A model generated the notes under the pieces. That model saw only the letters and a list, made by a program, of their open reading frames with translations. It was not told where the DNA came from and did not search any database. A stretch of 64,000 nucleotides of DNA from Bryobacterales bacterium (GTDB lineage Bacteria > Acidobacteriota > Terriglobia > Bryobacterales > Bryobacteraceae). The translations under genes were made by a program, and so were the position numbers. Positions within the stretch are counted from its first letter, which is position 1. The number at the start of each line of letters is the position of its first letter. Positions 1,471-54,321 of this stretch are shown here, piece after piece. Where the stretch lies: assembly GCA_963719195.1 (NCBI GenBank), contig CAVRBB010000009.1, forward strand, positions 406,280-470,279, given 5' to 3'.

Positions 1471-2491
1471 TTATGGACATGCATACCGATCTGAGACGAT
1501 TCTCACTGCTTCGTTGAATCGTGGTTGCCGCATATTCTGTAAGAGGTGTTCCCAATGAACCCTGCCGTAGACGGTTTTCATCTGGTTGTCCGCCAGGTTG
1601 ACCTCGCCCGCCCAGATGCGCCGGTGAAATTCTCTAAAGTCGGGCGCGTTCTCACTGAGATCCAACTGCCGGCCTGAGGAACCCAGCAAGAGGAAGACCA
1701 TGGCGTAGAAAATGTGGGCGACCTGCTGCATGAGGAAGAATCGGGCGAGTTGGTACTGATCAGGCGGTTGTCCAAAATACTCCTGAAGATAAACGCTTTC
1801 CTCTGCGTCGTTGGTGACGAGCAAATTAGCAACGACCGCCAGGTCGGCATACCGATCGTTCAGGAAAGCAGCTTCCCAGTCCACCAGCCATACGCGTTGT
1901 CCGTCGAAAAGGATATTGTCCGGCTTGAATAAGTCGTTGTGACTCGACACCATGTCCGGATCGTGACGCGGGTAAACCGCGGCCAGTTGCGCGTAGCGGG
2001 CGAGGAGTTCCTCGCTTTCACCTTCTGGGAGAATGTTCGCCGCCTGAAACTTCTGGATGAATCCGTCCACGGCAGGTCCCTTTGTTGATCAGGAACATGC
2101 ATGAGGTGTTGATGTGATTCGGCACTCCCGGAAACGGCGGTAGCGCATGCAGGGTCCGCAGCGCAGCGGGTATCCGAGCAAGCGCGTCCGTTACCGCAAA
2201 GGGCGCCGCCTCCACAAAATCTGTGATGGCAATCCGATCCTCTATGCTGGTGTACCAGACATGCGGCGCCAGACCTGCTTCAGCCGCCGCCTTCATGCAT
2301 GTGAAGTGGCGCGTAGGATCGTCTGTCCGCATGATGATCTTCAATAGGAATGGAGATCCTCGCACGACGATGCGAAAGACAAGGGACGAGGTATGACCCC
2401 CGGTCAGCCTGCGGATGTCTTCGAACGCTGTTACACCGAAAGCCTCGCGCAGGCCCCGAATCACTGCCGCGCTCTTCTCTTGCGGAATCAT
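1471..2491 (-). pseudogene. APH/choline-kinase-type phosphotransferase, split by one frame change near 2071-2083
   Basis: ORF 2018-2554 encodes the N-lobe (MIPQEKSAAV...FLLKII...). ORF 1471-2070 encodes the C-lobe with the catalytic HNDLFKPDNILF and VWLVDWE motifs. The two frames overlap at a ccc/ttt run, and the C-frame opens right after a TGA. Confidence 0.65.
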
Positions 2492-46724: not shown

Positions 46725-48006
46725 TTACCCTCCGATGGCAGACAGCCGTTCCCAGAATTCCGGGAACGACACCGACGCCGCTTCCGCTCCCTCGATCACC
46801 GATTCGCCGTCGCATGCCAGCGCCGCCACGGCAAACGCCATGGCGATCCGGTGATCGCCGAACGAGTCGAACGCCGCCGCGTGGAACTTCTGGCGCCCCG
46901 GAATCACCATGCCATCGGGGCATTCCTCGGCGGCCACACCCATGCGGCGCAGGTTGTCCACCACGGTGCGGACGCGGTCGGTCTCCTTCACCCGCAGCTC
47001 CGCCGCATCCTTCACGACCAGCCCCTCTTCGCTCGCGGCACCCAGCACCGCCAGCACGGGGATCTCGTCGATCAATGCCGCCGCCAGGCCGCCTTCGATG
47101 GCGCCTCCGCGAACCCGCGAATACTCCACCTCGAGGTTCCCCACCAGCTCGCCATTGATGCTTTCCAGGTCGGGGATGCGGATGCGCGCCCCCATGCCCA
47201 CCAGGAAATCGAGCAGGGCCGACCGCGTCGGGTTCAGACCTACGCCGGGAATGGAAAGCTGCGAGCCCGGCACCAGCAGCGCCGCGACCAGGAAAAACGC
47301 CGCCGAAGAAAGGTCGGAGGGCACCGTCAACTCCCGCCCGGTGAGCCTCGGCCGGCCGGTGATTGCAATCCTCCCCCGCCCCACCTTCACGTCGGCGCCG
47401 AATTCGCGCAGCGCGATCTCGGTGTGGTCGCGCGACCGCGCCGGCTCTGTCACGGCGGTTTCGCCATCCGCGTACAGCCCGGCCAACAGCACGCACGTCT
47501 TCACCTGCGCGCTGGCCACGGGCAGCTCATAATCAATCGGGCGCAGGCGCCCGCCTTCGATCTCGATGCGGCGGAAACTGGTCTTCGCGCGCGCGGATCC
47601 GCGCGCCCATCTGCTCCAGTGGCCGCATGATGCGCCGCATGGGCCGGCGGGATAGCGATTCGTCGCCGAAGATGCGCGTCCGGAACGGCTGCCCGGCGAG
47701 AATGCCCGAGAACATGCGGATGGTCGAGCCCGAGTTGCCCGCATCCAGATCGGCGGCCGGCTCGCGCAACCCGTCGAGCCCCCGGCCGTGGATCGTGAAC
47801 TCGGTCCCGCTCCCTTCGACCGGGATTCCGAGCGCGCGCACACAGCCCAGCGTCGAATGGCAATCCGCGCCCGTGGAGAAATTCCGAATCCGGCTCTCGC
47901 CTTCGGCGATGGCGGCGATCATGGCGTAGCGGTGGGAGATCGACTTGTCGCCGGGCAGGGCGACGGCGCCCGAGAGCGGCCGTGCGGGAGAAATCCTCTT
48001 TTCCAT
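46725..48006 (-). pseudogene. aroA: 3-phosphoshikimate 1-carboxyvinyltransferase (EPSP synthase) interrupted by a 1-nt frame change at about 47565-47574
   Basis: The N-part has LPGDKSISHR, LDAGNSGSTIR and ..REDQFPP. The C-part resumes IEIEGGRLRPIDYELPVASAQVKT in another frame. One extra c in ccgccgCatcgag explains the change. Confidence 0.85.
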
Positions 48007-48009
48007 GGG

Positions 48010-48357
48010 TTAGTCTTCCATTCCGAGCAGTTCCAGGAGTGCGCGGCCGGTCCGCTTCATGAGCGCGGGCGGCAACCGAAGCAGCGGCCCGCGAACCAGG
48101 CGCCGGTTGTCGATGGCGCGTAGCTGGTCCATCAACAGGTCGGAGTCGCGGGTGAGGCGTCCCGCCGCTGGAACCCGGACCCGTAATGGTTCGGCATCCT
48201 CGACGAGTTTGGTAGTCAGCGGAATCACGTAAGCGGAAGGATGTTCCGCCCCGAGCAGTGCCTGCGACTGGAAGATCAGAACCGGGCGGGTCCTGCCGGG
48301 TTCGGTCCCGCGGCGCGGGTCGAGGTTAGCCAGCCAGATCTCGCCGCGATCAGGCAT
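48010..48357 (-). CDS. mazF: Type II toxin, MazF/PemK-family endoribonuclease
   Basis: MPDRGEIWLANLDPRRGTEPGRTRPVLIFQS...IPLTT...LMDQLRAIDNRRL. Confidence 0.85.
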   Translation of the reverse strand: MPDRGEIWLANLDPRRGTEPGRTRPVLIFQSQALLGAEHPSAYVIPLTTKLVEDAEPLRVRVPAAGRLTRDSDLLMDQLRAIDNRRLVRGPLLRLPPALMKRTGRALLELLGMED

Positions 48358-48586
48358 CCGGATCCCGCTCGATCTTCGCGAACTCCGCATTCACCCGCAT
48401 GCTTTCCTCTCGCACCCGCTTCGACAGCTCCACCAGCCGTTCCGCGCGAAACCGCGCGGCGGTGCGCCGGTTCATCCGGCGAATTGCCATGCGGATGTAC
48501 TCGGCACGCGACAAATGCAGGCGGTCAGCCAGTTCCCCGCTCTCCGCAGCGAGCTCATCCGGGAGTTTGAGAGCGATACTACGCAC
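48350..48586 (-). CDS. Ribbon-helix-helix (CopG-type) antitoxin
   Basis: SIALKLPDELAAESGELADRLHLSRAEYIRMAIRR. GTG start at 48586 is preceded by AGGAGA. 8-nt overlap with mazF. Confidence 0.7.
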   Translation of the reverse strand: MRSIALKLPDELAAESGELADRLHLSRAEYIRMAIRRMNRRTAARFRAERLVELSKRVREESMRVNAEFAKIERDPDA

Positions 48587-48659
48587 GGATATCTCCTGCG
48601 GATATTCTACCAGCCGCGGCCGCGCAGCAGCAGCGGCCTTCCATGAGAGAATTGATGCG

Positions 48660-49268
48660 ATGGAAAGCCGCCAGACCGAGCCCATGTTCCTGCCCGGGGT
48701 CGAAGCCAATCCGCAGCCGGGTCCCTACCGCAACCTCATCGAGACGTTCCGCAAGAACGGCGCCGAGTATCCCCAGATCTGGCACCTGTTCGCATTCCGG
48801 CAGGAGGCCACCGAGCACCTGGCGCGTTTCACCCAGGCGATGATGCGCGGGCCGGCGCCGATGCCTCCCGGCATTCGCGAGCTGATCGCGGCCTACACGT
48901 CGTACCGCAACGACTGCCCGTTTTGACTGAAGGCCCACGCCGCAGTTGCGGCGGAACTGCTGGGGGACGAGGCGCTGGTCTGGGCCGTGCTGCGCGATGT
49001 CGAAAGCTCGCCGCTCGACGAGAAACACAAAGCCCTGTTCCGTTTCATCGATAAGGTGAATCGCGACTCGCCGCGCATCACGCCCGAAGACATGAAGCCC
49101 CTGTACGCGGCCGGATGGGATGACGAGGCCATCTACTTCGCCATTACGGTGTGCGCGCTGTTCAATTTTTACAACCGCTGGATCGACGCCGGCGGAGTGC
49201 ACGCCATGTCCGAGGAGGCGCATCGCGAAGGCGGCCGGCGTACCGCGGCCCACGGGTACATTCGCTAG
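48660..49268 (+). CDS. AhpD-like/CMD-family peroxidase-related protein read through one in-frame TGA (48924-48926); candidate selenoprotein, otherwise a pseudogene
   Basis: ORFs 48399-48926 and 48987-49268 are in the same frame with only this stop between them. The TGA replaces the second Cys of the family motif: SYRNDCPF[TGA]LKAH. Confidence 0.65.
48938..48953 (+). other. Candidate bacterial SECIS upper stem-loop
   Basis: CGCCGC-AGTT-GCGGCG starts 11 nt after the TGA. The loop contains GU. Confidence 0.35.
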
Positions 49269-49352
49269 AGCGCAGCGCGGTGCGGCCTGGCAGGCTGTGG
49301 CAGAACCGCAACCCGGCCCGGAGGCAGGCGGGCTTTCTCTTGTTGCCACCGC

Positions 49353-50294
49353 CTAGCGCGCGTTCGCGTAGGCGGCGTACATCTCCCGGATCCCCGCCGC
49401 CGTGGTATCGCCGGGGTGAATCACCACCCGAAACCGGAACCGCAGCGGCTGGCCGGGGCGGATGGTGAGGCTTCCGTCGCGACTCTTGTCGTTTTCGAAA
49501 TCGTGCACCCCGAAAATATTGGTGGCGAAGAGGCCATACGCCCGCGCGTGCCAGTATGTGGGATAGCGCGGGTTGTTGGGATGGTCGAAGATCGCCACTC
49601 CCAGCGTCTGCCCGTCGATCTGCCCGTAATAGTCCACCCACTCCGAGCGCTTGCCCCAGACGTTCTTTTCTCCCGATTTGTTCTGCGCATTCACCATGTG
49701 GCCGCCGCGGTCTTCCTCGAGCGGCGCGGCCAGGCGAATGGCGAACATGCCTTCCTTGGTGTCTCCGAACTTGACTTCTTCCTCTGGCGAGAGCGTAGCG
49801 TCGAAATCGACGATACGCATCCGCGGGTCCGCATAGAAGGTCATGCTGCGGCGCTCGGTGAGCAGCGCCTTTCCGCCGGCCACCCACTCGAAGATGGCGT
49901 CGATGGCGCCTTTGCTCTTGCCGCTGGTCACCTTGTCGATTCTGGTCAACACCACCTTGCCTTTGCCCTTACCGGCGCCCTTTTGGGAATCTTCGTTGCC
50001 CCAGAAGTCGTAGCCGTTCACGTCGCCGTGCGTGAACCACAGCCCGCGGTGATGGGGATGATCGTGCGGCTCGCCCGGGATGTCGGTCACCATGGGATAG
50101 CCGCGCGTGACGATGACGCCCGATGCGGCGCGCAACGGGCTGAGGTATGGCTTTTTGGTCTCCGGCCCGACGAAGAAGTCGGTGAACGGCTTTCCGTCGA
50201 TCTCCACCGAGACCTTCTGATTGTCTTGTTGCGCGATCTTCACCTGCGCGAAGAGCGGCACACCGAGAGCGGCGAGCAACAGGATGCGGGTCAT
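49353..50294 (-). CDS. PmoA-family / DUF6807 protein, secreted
   Basis: Signal peptide MTRILLLAALGVPLFAQ. KPYLSPL, HDHPHHRGLWFTHGDVNGYDFW and WHARAYGLFATN. Confidence 0.75.
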   Translation of the reverse strand: MTRILLLAALGVPLFAQVKIAQQDNQKVSVEIDGKPFTDFFVGPETKKPYLSPLRAASGVIVTRGYPMVTDIPGEPHDHPHHRGLWFTHGDVNGYDFWGNEDSQKGAGKGKGKVVLTRIDKVTSGKSKGAIDAIFEWVAGGKALLTERRSMTFYADPRMRIVDFDATLSPEEEVKFGDTKEGMFAIRLAAPLEEDRGGHMVNAQNKSGEKNVWGKRSEWVDYYGQIDGQTLGVAIFDHPNNPRYPTYWHARAYGLFATNIFGVHDFENDKSRDGSLTIRPGQPLRFRFRVVIHPGDTTAAGIREMYAAYANAR

Positions 50295-50319
50295 AGAGAC
50301 ACCATGATACATCTGAGAC

Positions 50320-50680
50320 ATGGTCCGCTGGCTTGTCCCGTTGGTGCTTGCCGCGTCGGCTTGCGCGGCCGACTACTTTCCGATGGCGGTGTGGTACGGG
50401 GGCGGCAAAGCGCGCGCGCCCATGCTGGAACCCGGCGCACGCGCCAAGAAGGAACTCTGGCGCAAAGACCTGCGCCAGATCAAGGCGCTGGGCTTCAACA
50501 CGATGCGCACGTGGATCAGGGCGGCTTCGGGACCATCGCGCTGAACGTGAGCCCCACGGTGACGCCGGAAGACCTTCGCGTGTGGACGTGGTCGGCGCTG
50601 TCGCGCGGCGCCAAGGGCATCAATTACTATGACCAGAGTTTTGCCATGCTCATGAGGTCCTCGCGGGATGGGTTGTGAAG
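50320..50680 (+). pseudogene. Glycoside hydrolase family 42-like remnant with an internal deletion and frame change
   Basis: N-terminal WRKDLRQIKALGFNTMRTWI then, in another frame, WSALSRGAKGINYY. The roughly 300 codons expected between them are missing. Confidence 0.5.
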
Positions 50681-50826: not shown

Positions 50827-53800
50827 CTACGACAGCAGAAGCTCCAGATCTTCCCGCCGCAGATTCCGCATCACGCTGTTATCCTCGCTGATGATAGCCG
50901 CGGCCAGGTCGCGTTTGCTCTGCTGCAACTCCAGGACCTTCTCCTCGACCGTCTCGCGCGCAATCAGCCGATAGGCGAAAACCTGCTGCGTCTGCCCGAT
51001 GCGGTGCGCGCGGTCCACCGCCTGCGCTTCCACCGCCGGGTTCCACCAGGGGTCCAGCAGAAACACGTACCCGGCCGCGGTGAGGTTCAACCCCAGGCCG
51101 CCCGCCTTCAGGCTGATCAGGAACAACCGGCAGTCGCCATCGTTCTGGAAGCGCTCCACGCAACTCTGCCGGTTGTGCGTGGCGCCATCCAGGTACTCGT
51201 ACACGATCCCCAGACCGTCCAGCCGCTTGCGCACAATGCCGAGCAGGGTCGTGAATTGCGAAAACACCAGCGCCTTGTGCCCCTGGTCGAGAACTTCGCG
51301 CACCTGCTCCAACAGCATGTCCAGCTTGGCGCTGGGCTCGTTCGCGCGCTTCACGTCGATGAGGCCGGGATGGCACGCGGCCTGCCGCAAACGCAGCAAG
51401 GCCTCGAGCACCTGGATTTTCGATTTTGCCAGACCTTCGGACTCGATCCGCTTCAGCAGGGAATTCCGGTAATGCTGGCGCAGATCCTGGTACAGCTTGC
51501 GCTGGACCGGCTCCATCTCACAGTAAATCGTCTGTTCGGTTTTGGGCGGAAGCTCGCGAGCCACCTGTTCTTTCGTGCGCCGCAGGATGAAGGGGCGTAG
51601 CGCGTGGGCCAGGAGGTGGCGCGTCTCTTCGTCTGGATTGCGCGCGCTTCCGCCGGCCAGTTTGAAGACACTCGCCGCGCCCAGCATGCCGGGGTTGAGG
51701 AACTCGAACAGGGTCCAGAGCTCGCCCAGGTGATTCTCCACCGGGGTGCCGCTGAGCGCCAGCCGGTGGCGCCCGCGCAACAGGCGCACGGCTTTGGAGG
51801 ACTCGGTGGATGCGTTTTTCACCGCCTGGGCCTCGTCGAGCACGATGTAATCGAACTCGGCATCCTTGAGCCGGAGCGCATCCCGGCGCACGGTGCCGTA
51901 GGTGGTCAGGACCACGTCGCACGTGCTGAAATCCTCGGCGCTGCGCGCCAGCCCGGTGTAGTCCAGCACCTTGAGTTGCGGTGTGAAGCGCGCCGCCTCC
52001 TGCTTCCAGTTGAAGACCAGCGACTTGGGAACCACCACCAGCGACGGCGCGAGCGCTTCGCCGGCGGCACGCAGCTCACGGCGCGTTTCCAGCAGCGCGA
52101 GCACTTGCGCGGTCTTGCCCACACCCATGTCGTCGGCCAGGCAGCCTCCGAACGAGAACCGGCGGAGAAAGTGCATCCAGCCGACGCCATCGCACTGATA
52201 GTCGCGCAGTTGCCCCACGAAGCCGGGGGGCTGCGGAGCGGCCTCGACACCATGGAACCGCCGCAATTGCTCGCGGACCCGGGCGAAGGTTTCATCGCAG
52301 CGGGCTTCGGGCTGCGCTGCCAGCAGCGCGTCGAGCAGCCCGGCCTGGCTGGGGCGAAAGCGGAGGTGATCCCCCTCCCGCGAGCCCAGGCCCGCCAGCA
52401 TCCCATAACGCCGCAGCCATTCTTCGGGAAGAATGCCGTAGGTCCCGTCATCCAGGCGGACCATGTTGTCGCCGCGGCGCAAGGCTTCGAGCAGCTCGGG
52501 AAGGCGGGCGCTGCTCTCGCCGTATTCCACGGTGCCGTGCAGCTCGAACCAGTCGATGCCGCTCGCAACCTCGATGCGAAACGCTCCCGGGCGCCGGAAG
52601 ATCTTACCTTCGGCTTCCACGTGCCAGCCGGCTTCCACCAGGCCGCGGACGATACGCGGCAGCCTTTTCGGCGCGGCGTCCCAGTACGGATCTTCGTAGG
52701 GCGGCCTGTAAAACCGGATTCCCAGCCCGGTGAGCAGCTCCGCCGCGGCGTCTTCCGCGGCCTGGTCCCGGCGCAGAAAGCGGCGGTGTTCCCGATCGTA
52801 GAAACCACGCGCCGGCTCGAGGGAGGATACGAGACGGCCCTCGTAATCGAATAACAGCTCCGCGCGGAGCCGGTCCGAACCCGGCGACCCGGAGCTCCGG
52901 ATGCGAAAGCACGGGCGCACCTGCGGCGTGAACTCCTCGTAGCGGAATTCTTCGGGTACGTCCAGCGGCGGCAGTCCCGGCGAGGAGAGCAGCGCCTCCA
53001 GGAGCGACTCACGATCCTCATCCGGCACGTTGATCTGCTTCTTGCTCCGGAGATGCGCCAGCCACGTGAAGGCGGCGTCTTCCGCCAGCGGCGCCACGCG
53101 ATCGCCCGTGAAGACGAGCCCGCCATGCGTGATCAGCACCGGGGCCACCAGATCCAGTCGCTCTTCTCCCCGCCACAGAACCCCCACCACCGACCAGCCG
53201 CGCCGGTGGTGCCGGCGGATCTCAATGCCGAATTGCCACGGGTCTCCTTCATCCCAGGTAAGCGGTGTGAGCAACTCGTCTACTTTGCCATTCAGCAGGA
53301 AGCAGCGCCCGCTGCGCGCAGCCGTGCGAACGATGCTGGTGGCGAGGGGGTGCTTCACCAGGCAGGACGTGGCCAGCGTTTCATACCCCCCGCTGTAGGA
53401 GTAAGTCCAATACTGCTTGCCGCCCGCCAGGGCCGCTAAAATCTCGCGGTCCTCCGGCAACGGCATCGCTTCGATCTGATTGTGCCGGAGGCTGGCGCTG
53501 ACCGGGTCCGTCCACTTCCCGTTCGCTTTGCGGTCCCGCGTGCGCAATGCCAGTACCAGGGAATCGGTTGCGGCGCTGCTGGCCACGTCGACGGCATAGA
53601 GCAGTTGGCGCTTCTCCGGCCAGGGGGAGCCAAATGGGGGGTAATGCACCGGCGGCGTCGCTGAAATCCCGTCGATCTCCATGCGCCATGCGGGCCGAAC
53701 CGCCGGCGTCCCCTCCTCTTCGGCAGGGGGCGATTCCTCCCCTCCGTCCGGCTTGAGGCTGTCCGGAGTGGAGAGGCCGTAATCCACCGCCAGATCCGGT

Positions 53801-54087
53801 TCTTCGGCGAGGGCCGACAGATACCCCTTGGTTTCAGCCGCCAGGATAGTGGCCCACAAATGCTTGCAAGGGCCCTCGGAAACAAAATACGGGCAGTCAC
53901 ACCAGGCGGATAGCGTCCCGTCCTGCCAATCCAGTCCGACGTCGTACGGGCGCGATCCGGTAACCCGCGCCACCACCGAGCGGTCACACCCGCTCTTGAT
54001 ATGAACCAGTCGTTGCCAGACATAGTTCTGGCCCCGCCGGCGGACGGTGCCGGTAAAATCGCCGGACAGCCTGGTGGAAAGACTCAT
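50827..54087 (-). CDS. SNF2-family helicase with an N-terminal SWIM zinc finger
   Basis: SWIM: [17 protein letters not shown]. SNF2_N: [31 protein letters not shown]. Helicase C: [40 protein letters not shown]. Confidence 0.9.
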   Translation of the reverse strand: [1086 protein letters not shown]

Positions 54088-54321
54088 GCGCGGCCGAAAG
54101 GGGAGGTTGTTTCCATTGTATCGAAAACCGGGTTCGTGGGATCGCCTACGTTTTCCGGATTGCGCCGTTTTTGACCATTTCCTCCAGACCTGCACCCATG
54201 ATATAGTTGAGGCGCGTTTGATTGCGTTTGCGAGTCCGGCCGAGTGTTTCTAAGCGACGGCATCGTCGTTCCGCTTGTGTTTCCTCTCCGATGAGCTGCT
54301 TTCAAATTGTGTGGAGGATGT

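Follow-up and report, generated by a model that had tools for sequence, protein, structure and literature searches.

Positions 48660-49268 of the window, by which we mean the whole 64-kb stretch of Bryobacterales DNA that was analysed, raise the question of how a single in-frame TGA within a conserved gene is read by the cell. On the forward strand, translation from 48660 gives 88 codons, the TGA at 48924-48926 and then 113 sense codons before a TAG at 49266-49268, with the TGA as the sole in-frame stop among these 202 codons. The N-terminal part opens with MESRQTEPMFLPGVE and runs to ...AYTSYRNDCPF immediately before the TGA, while the peptide that follows the TGA begins with LKAHAAVAAELLGDEALVW, passes through WDDEAIYFAITVCALFNFYNRWIDAGGVH and finishes with HGYIR before the TAG; around the stop the peptide reads ...AYTSYRNDCPF-(TGA)-LKAHAAVAAELL...WDDEAIYFAITVCALFNFYNRW.... 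An earlier note on this DNA had counted 114 more codons after the TGA, and the same frame does continue as it claimed, with 113 sense codons and the TAG making up that number. The comparative analysis described below indicates that the UGA is very probably the selenocysteine (Sec) codon of an AhpD-like (COG2128/TIGR01926) thiol-selenol oxidoreductase from a Bryobacterales-type soil acidobacterium. The features of the locus are as follows.

48660-49268, forward strand: predicted AhpD-like selenoprotein coding sequence, 201 sense codons including the UGA as Sec89, with its TAG at 49266-49268.

48924-48926, forward strand: in-frame TGA, predicted U89, the second redox residue in the motif C86-P-F-U89.

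48879-48938, forward strand: active-site segment E74...C86-P-F-U89...H93, with E74 at 48879-48881, C86 at 48915-48917 and H93 at 48936-48938.

48938-48953, forward strand: SECIS-like hairpin within the coding sequence, with stem CGCCGC/GCGGCG and loop A-G-U-U at 48944-48947.

49315-49344, forward strand: terminator-like hairpin with a T-rich tail, 47 nt past the TAG.

The start codon was assumed to be the ATG at 48660; a second possible start is the ATG at 48684 (M9, MFLPGVE...), and the earlier one is favoured because several related loci align to query residues 1-202. The list of open reading frames splits the locus into 48399-48926 and 48987-49268, which is also how standard gene callers would divide it.

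With Cys substituted for the TGA, residues 14-176 matched the TIGR01926 model ('peroxidase-related enzyme') at 86.8 bits, above its cut-off of 81.8, and the Pfam CMD/AhpD family PF02627 was matched at 25.8 against a cut-off of 23. These scores bear out the reading of the post-TGA sequence as CMD/peroxidase-related, which had been made from the letters alone. Database searches returned 2345 homologues at E<=1e-5, and the nearest solved structures were the 'peroxidase-related proteins' 2pfx and 2oyo and the AhpD protein 6k40 (E values from 1e-14 to 1e-16). The N-x-C-x-x-C-x-x-x-H motif of the solved structures aligns with N-D-C-P-F-TGA-L-K-A-H, and C-P-F-TGA is matched by NKCFYC in 2pfx and, in 98 Cys forms, by motifs such as CAFC, CGFC and CRFC. 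The stop column coincides with the second Cys of the CxxC motif in 98 of the 120 best protein homologues, and the placement of a single TGA at that Cys in the earlier note is exact, both in the translation and in the alignment to the Cys homologues, 2pfx and 2oyo. Across the homologue alignment E74 is invariant, while conservation reaches 90% or more at C86 and H93. Two further AhpD-superfamily selenoprotein models that also have Sec as the second residue of CxxU gave weak partial matches, namely NF041238 (AhpD_rel_CFYUT, 29.4 bits against a cut-off of 175) and NF053654 (YciW-related (seleno)protein, 17.8 against 310), and the protein belongs to neither.

The active site was compared with that of AhpD of Mycobacterium tuberculosis, which belongs to the same CMD/AhpD fold family and has a proton relay formed by Glu118, Cys130-x-x-Cys133 and His137 (PMC3141380); its Cys133 attacks Cys61 of AhpC to yield a mixed disulfide (PMC6626918). 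Residues 74/86/89/93 of the window protein have the same spacing as 118/130/133/137, which places residue 89, encoded by the TGA, at the position of Cys133, whereas His132 of the mycobacterial protein is Phe88 here and the window protein falls in a different, single-domain subfamily with 2pfx and 2oyo as its nearest PDB entries. The catalytic nucleophile is the typical place for Sec. Sec89 would stand in for the exposed, nucleophilic second Cys of CxxC and would attack an oxidised substrate, which could be the sulfenate or disulfide of a peroxiredoxin or a hydroperoxide, after which Cys86 would resolve the selenenylsulfide formed with the substrate, with Glu74 and His93 serving as a putative proton relay. 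In the cell the substrate is probably a peroxiredoxin in its oxidised form, a different disulfide or a hydroperoxide.

Whereas mycobacterial AhpD is the reductant of AhpC, no ahpC or other peroxiredoxin gene was found within 10 kb upstream or 5 kb downstream of the window gene. Its upstream neighbours encode a MazF/PemK toxin, AroA, a DNA polymerase III delta-type subunit, a radical SAM protein, an FMN oxidoreductase and a TPR protein, and those downstream encode a DUF6807 protein and an SNF2 helicase. A comparison of the flanks of the window gene with those of related loci, which was noisy owing to shadow ORFs in GC-rich DNA, revealed no gene common to both. Within this neighbourhood, aroA is apparently frameshifted at approximately 47560-47570, and the assembly is therefore not error-free.

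The conservation of the TGA was assessed in 160 loci with 73-81% identity, consisting of the best 80 metagenome loci and the best 80 loci from GTDB species genomes, the latter all from MAGs assigned to Bryobacterales, Bryobacteraceae, Solibacteraceae or other Terriglobia; the closest GTDB species-genome relative has 81% identity at best. A TGA is present in the residue-89 column in all 160 loci, which come from independent metagenomes and named MAGs (the codon was read by eye in loci L059 and L102), and the frame that joins the two halves is unbroken, with no gap or indel, in every one. Homologues at 70% identity or below have Cys in this column. The earlier note had held that Cys in homologues together with an unconserved hairpin would speak against Sec; the alignment that it proposed instead showed a TGA retained throughout the nearest relatives, with a conserved hairpin (see below), and Cys only in the remoter proteins. 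Comparison of the window gene with 159 loci gave a dN/dS of 0.20 over 78 codons before the TGA and 0.09 over 108 codons after it. This latter value signifies strong purifying selection and indicates that translation continues in this frame through the downstream part.

These data bear directly on the reading in which the TGA is a genuine stop, so that an N-terminal fragment of 88 residues is made, perhaps together with a C-terminal protein initiated independently at an internal codon such as GTG 48987. Standard gene calling would yield exactly this division, and termination by release factor 2 (RF2) competes with Sec insertion in any case, especially when selenium is scarce. However, the two halves remain in a single gap-free frame across the 160 loci, and the 20 codons that separate the TGA from GTG 48987 encode a conserved peptide (LKxHAAVAAELLG), which completes the CxxU...H active site. 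Neither fragment on its own would have a complete active site, as Glu74 and Cys86 precede the TGA and His93 follows it. In addition, no terminator-like site was found 3' of the TGA (48926), whereas one is present after the TAG (49268). We consider a genuine stop to be highly improbable.

A TGC or TGT Cys codon that has been miscalled or has mutated to TGA, either as a sequencing error or in a recent pseudogene, is a further proposal, given that TGC to TGA is a one-base change and that at least one gene in the window, aroA, is apparently frameshifted. The occurrence of TGA in 160 independent assemblies makes a base-call error untenable, and the purifying selection downstream of the TGA and the co-conserved hairpin likewise argue against error or gene decay, which leaves this explanation extremely improbable.

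A different residue was found in 20 of the 120 best database homologues (69-80% identity), which read CPFW at the motif; these are JGI gene calls on contigs of approximately 1 kb. Taken at face value, they would favour genome-wide reassignment of UGA to Trp or Gly (codes 4 or 25). However, the metagenome loci show TGA, never TGG, in this column (80/80), so the W in the 20 JGI proteins, whose own contigs were outside this set of loci, is most likely a TGA read under code 4. TGA also serves as the terminal stop of 10 of the 25 other confident genes in the window, which shows that UGA has not been reassigned, and no second TGA-interrupted gene was detected in the window, where same-frame neighbours proved to be separate genes. 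The probability of reassignment is accordingly minute, and sequencing error, pseudogene formation and a changed genetic code can all be regarded as excluded in practice.

Exactly 11 nt (48927-48937) separate the UGA from a hairpin in which CGCCGC (48938-48943) pairs with GCGGCG (48948-48953) across an AGUU loop (48944-48947), in full agreement with the 6-bp GC stem, AGUU loop, coordinates and spacing reported in the earlier note. The loop G and U are nucleotides 22-23, numbering from the U of the UGA. The minimal SECIS of Escherichia coli fdhF is a 17-nt stem-loop located 11 nt from the UGA, with essential loop nucleotides G23 and U24 (PMC8659212). As in fdhF, the hairpin of the window gene lies inside the coding sequence, starts 11 nt past the UGA and carries G-U in its apical loop; in contrast to fdhF, it has no bulged U17, its perfect 6 (+1) bp stem is not extended by a conserved lower stem, and its G-U falls at nucleotides 22-23 rather than 23-24, 1 nt nearer to the UGA. 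Judged by this analogy, the hairpin is SECIS-like but not of the enterobacterial type. A larger lower stem that appeared in the fold of the single sequence was not conserved in the alignment fold and was discarded. No Rfam model matched the hairpin, either at E<=10 in a search of 48880-49020 or at the gathering threshold across the whole window.

Both strands of the window, 128 kb in all, contain only eight perfect hairpins that combine an NGUN tetraloop with a stem of 5 bp or more, and the chance of such a hairpin starting within a 7-nt window after a given TGA is approximately 4e-4. The whole 76-nt stretch folds no better than shuffled sequences (z = +1.18); what stands out is the conserved local hairpin rather than the stability of the region as a whole.

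This conservation was examined in an alignment of 130 distinct 48-nt sequences beginning at the UGA. The five core pairs are invariant or vary only by G-U wobble (two sequences each), and 98.2% of cells are paired, compared with 27-82% after a shift of the partners by 1-3 columns. Counted per locus, the loop is AGUU in 85 of the 160, GGUC in 60, AGGU in 13 and CGGU in two, with GGUC also being the loop of the E. coli fdhF SECIS. The second loop position is always G and the third is U in over 90%. Loop bases 1 and 4 both occupy synonymous third-codon positions, of an Ala codon and a Val codon, respectively, and form a loop-closing pair that is A-U in 78 of the 130 distinct sequences, G-C in 51 and something else in one; the combinations A..C and G..U never occur. 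When mapped to a neighbour-joining tree computed from the gene after exclusion of the hairpin, the closing bases switched between A..U and G..C approximately 10-11 times with no intermediate seen, compared with approximately 50 switches for random labels. The closing-pair changes are repeated double substitutions rather than a single inherited event.

Codon usage within the hairpin points in the same direction. Third-position entropy at conserved, fourfold-degenerate codons is 0.59 in the hairpin and 1.49 ± 0.23 elsewhere; the five hairpin codons have individual values of 0.14, 1.04, 0.97, 0.00 and 0.80, and the minimum over 35 comparable codons outside the hairpin is 0.83. GCA and GUU, which are rare elsewhere in the gene, dominate the hairpin and supply its A..U pair. 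A further constraint is apparent in the protein itself, where the loop codon (+7) encodes Val, or Gly with AGGU and CGGU loops, in every Sec form, whereas in the 98 Cys forms it encodes Ala (68), Phe (9), Ile (8), Val (7) or Thr (6), which implies that the RNA constrains the protein at this codon. The resemblance to a bacterial SECIS suggested in the earlier note is thereby strengthened by conserved synonymous sites, an invariant loop G and covarying loop-closing bases, and this pattern of substitution indicates that the hairpin is selected as RNA.

Absence of the hairpin from Cys forms had been considered as a criterion for a Sec-specific element, but was dropped when half of the few Cys-form genes were found to make the stem. 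A 5-6 bp hairpin is present at the same place in three of six distinct Cys-form genes, with CAUU or CGCC loops. The stem alone is not Sec-specific, because the codons GCC-GCN-NNN-GCG-GCG, which encode Ala-Ala-x-Ala-Ala, are self-complementary. The features that are specific to the Sec forms are the G-U loop, the covariation of the closing pair and the frozen synonymous sites. In this small sample of six Cys-form genes, the occurrence of the stem suggests that a pre-existing hairpin eased the switch from Cys to Sec. The stronger proposal, that the SECIS was exapted from a hairpin already formed by the Ala-Ala-x-Ala-Ala codons of Cys homologues, is possible, and we put it forward tentatively while leaning slightly against it. 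If correct, it would mean that the transition from Cys to Sec needed little beyond a change of TGC to TGA and of the loop codon to GUN.

Incorporation of Sec would require the corresponding machinery. No selA, selB, selD or tRNA-Sec gene was detected in the 64-kb window or in approximately 1.6 Mb of flanks of related loci; tRNA-Sec was sought with ARAGORN and Rfam in the window and all loci, and E. coli SelA, SelB and SelD, used as tblastn queries against 168 loci and the window, returned only one match, to an EF-like GTPase. The lineage, in contrast to these genomic fragments, does have Sec genes. SelA, SelB and two FdhA selenoproteins are listed for Solibacter usitatus in the supplement of Zhang et al. 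(2006), and the paper itself gives a count of four selenoproteins for Acidobacteria (PMC1794560). Soil metagenomes and named Bryobacteraceae MAGs also contain abundant SelA homologues that are 73-90% identical to the one from Solibacter, with selA usually adjoining efp. The tRNA gene that adjoins selA in locus L171 was considered as a candidate selC and proved to encode tRNA-Pro. Comparison of the SelA matches with the gene-bearing loci revealed no single MAG with both selA and the UGA gene, and the presence of the Sec trait is established at the level of the lineage only.

Recoding of the UGA to a residue other than Sec, such as Cys or Ser, would also account for the conserved reading frame. 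This could involve a suppressor, either a SelC*-like tRNA-Cys(UCA) or an acidobacterial allo-tRNA, with or without a SelB-like factor. Mukai et al. described allo-tRNAs in acidobacteria as possible nonsense suppressors, as well as SelC*, a tRNA-Cys with an opal anticodon that occurs with a second selB in deltaproteobacteria, although the SelC* genes were reported in Firmicutes, Thermodesulfobacteria, Nitrospirae and Proteobacteria and not in Acidobacteria (PMC5389517). Against such recoding, canonical SelA and SelB exist in the lineage, and residue 89 is the classical Cys/Sec position in a family whose use of Sec is already established. The use of UGA merely to reinsert Cys would bring no evident gain, yet the UGA is kept in all 160 loci. 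We rate non-Sec recoding as very unlikely; were it true, a large soil clade would have hairpin-directed recoding of UGA to a residue other than Sec.

For the preferred reading, in which the UGA is decoded as Sec, a route of incorporation can be proposed. The hairpin at 48938-48953 would present its G-U dinucleotide on a closed N-N' pair, and this N-G-U-N' loop would be bound at the ribosome by SelB carrying Sec-tRNA(Sec), in competition with RF2, such that selenium would be incorporated at residue 89.

The statement in the earlier note that AhpD-like proteins are among the reported bacterial selenoprotein families is borne out by the literature, in which the family has a CxxU motif (PMC1088965, PMC2398784, PMC13188914). 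An AhpD-like protein (COG2128, CxxU) was described in 2005 as a new selenoprotein family in the Sargasso Sea metagenome, with 27 sequences and predicted SECIS elements that have a conserved G in the apical loop (PMC1088965), and 'AhpD-like 1' was later the fourth most abundant selenoprotein family in the GOS data set, with 299 sequences (PMC2398784). A table in a 2026 review lists an 'AhpD-like protein, TIGR01926, CxxU' (PMC13188914). The window gene has in common with this COG2128/TIGR01926 family the CxxU motif with Sec in second position, pairs of Sec and Cys homologues, and a downstream SECIS hairpin with an apical G, but its host is a soil member of the Bryobacterales (Acidobacteriota), in contrast to the mainly marine metagenomes, Clostridia and Actinobacteria of the published family.

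We found no naming of this soil Bryobacterales clade in the literature on AhpD-like selenoproteins. What is new here is the soil acidobacterial clade, as the family itself has been known since 2005, and no new kind of biology is opened. An abundant soil clade of acidobacteria would join a selenoprotein family whose described members come mostly from organisms that are marine or anaerobic. There are consequences for annotation, as the gene is split or truncated by standard callers and its TGA is read as Trp in JGI calls on short contigs, and probably hundreds of soil Bryobacterales genes are mis-annotated. The loci also provide a clean, natural data set of a minimal bacterial SECIS, comprising 160 sequences with a 6-7 bp stem, an N-G-U-N' loop and approximately 10 independent compensatory switches. 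When the window protein was compared with the published AhpD-like selenoprotein of Alkaliphilus metalliredigenes, U aligned to U at an overall identity of only 24%.

In the publicly available JGI annotation of short contigs (including homologues P0001-P0016, P0035 and P0036), the predicted selenocysteine column of the AhpD-like protein is occupied by Trp, giving a CPFW motif. All 80 fetched metagenome loci with a related gene (L001-L080) carry TGA at this column, and the Trp of the JGI calls is therefore most likely TGA translated with genetic code 4. For the 20 CPFW proteins themselves, this most likely reading is drawn from the sequences of the 80 fetched loci. If it holds, the clade is systematically mis-annotated.

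Among Cys-form genes, those at loci L164, L166 and L168 feature a 5-6 bp hairpin at the position of the SECIS-like element, 11-34 nt past the Cys codon, so that a hairpin is often already present there in Cys-containing homologues. This is attributable to the self-complementarity of Ala-Ala-x-Ala-Ala codons. The loops of these hairpins (CAUU and CGCC) lack G-U, and the hairpins may represent raw material for SECIS evolution. The second-nearest Cys-form relative (P0018, encoded at L162 5001-5597) has a T-Q-F-C motif in which the first (resolving) Cys is missing, and its DNA features no hairpin at the SECIS position. Five further homologues (P0019, P0020, P0021, P0023 and P0026; 323-336 residues) all contain a full Cys-form domain and have an N-terminus that is approximately 130 residues longer. 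In the two of these five that were aligned, P0019 and P0020, the C-terminal half of the domain recurs in the extension (...WSDEALYDAIGVCAQFNYYNRWIDATGV...), which suggests a partial tandem duplication.

Elsewhere in the window, only one other plus-strand hairpin combines a perfect 6-bp stem with an N-G-U-N loop, and it lies in a region to which no gene was assigned, where none of the three plus-strand frames is open across it:

2000-2015, plus strand: hairpin GCGAGG-AGTT-CCTCGC

Three further hairpins of this type are found on the minus strand.

The selA-bearing regions of three Bryobacteraceae contigs are as follows:

L171, 5918-7934
L173 and L174, 3001-5106

In each, selA stands alone and adjoins efp on the opposite strand, with no selAB or selC cluster around it; in L171, selA is also preceded by tRNA-Pro.

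The selenoprotein gene is flanked by the following features:

46725-48006, minus strand: aroA (EPSP synthase), split over two reading frames with a break near 47560-47575
48010-48390, minus strand: MazF/PemK-type toxin gene (Pfam E-value 2e-21)
48350-48709, minus strand: small ORF overlapping and preceding the toxin gene
49353-50321, minus strand: DUF6807 protein
50827-54195, minus strand: SNF2-family helicase (1122 residues, N-terminal SWIM zinc finger)

The helicase gene is the second downstream, beyond that of the DUF6807 protein. The two parts of aroA, 47533-48006 and 46725-47570, correspond to Pfam profile positions 3-142 and 147-417, respectively, and the shift arises from one surplus base around CCGCCG-C-ATCGAG, which reflects either an assembly indel or a genuine frameshift in an essential biosynthetic gene. 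The toxin gene is the immediate upstream neighbour of the selenoprotein gene, on the opposite strand. The C-terminal part of the small ORF resembles an antitoxin of the ribbon-helix-helix type but gives no Pfam match, and in its longest version the ORF extends over the start codon of the selenoprotein gene.
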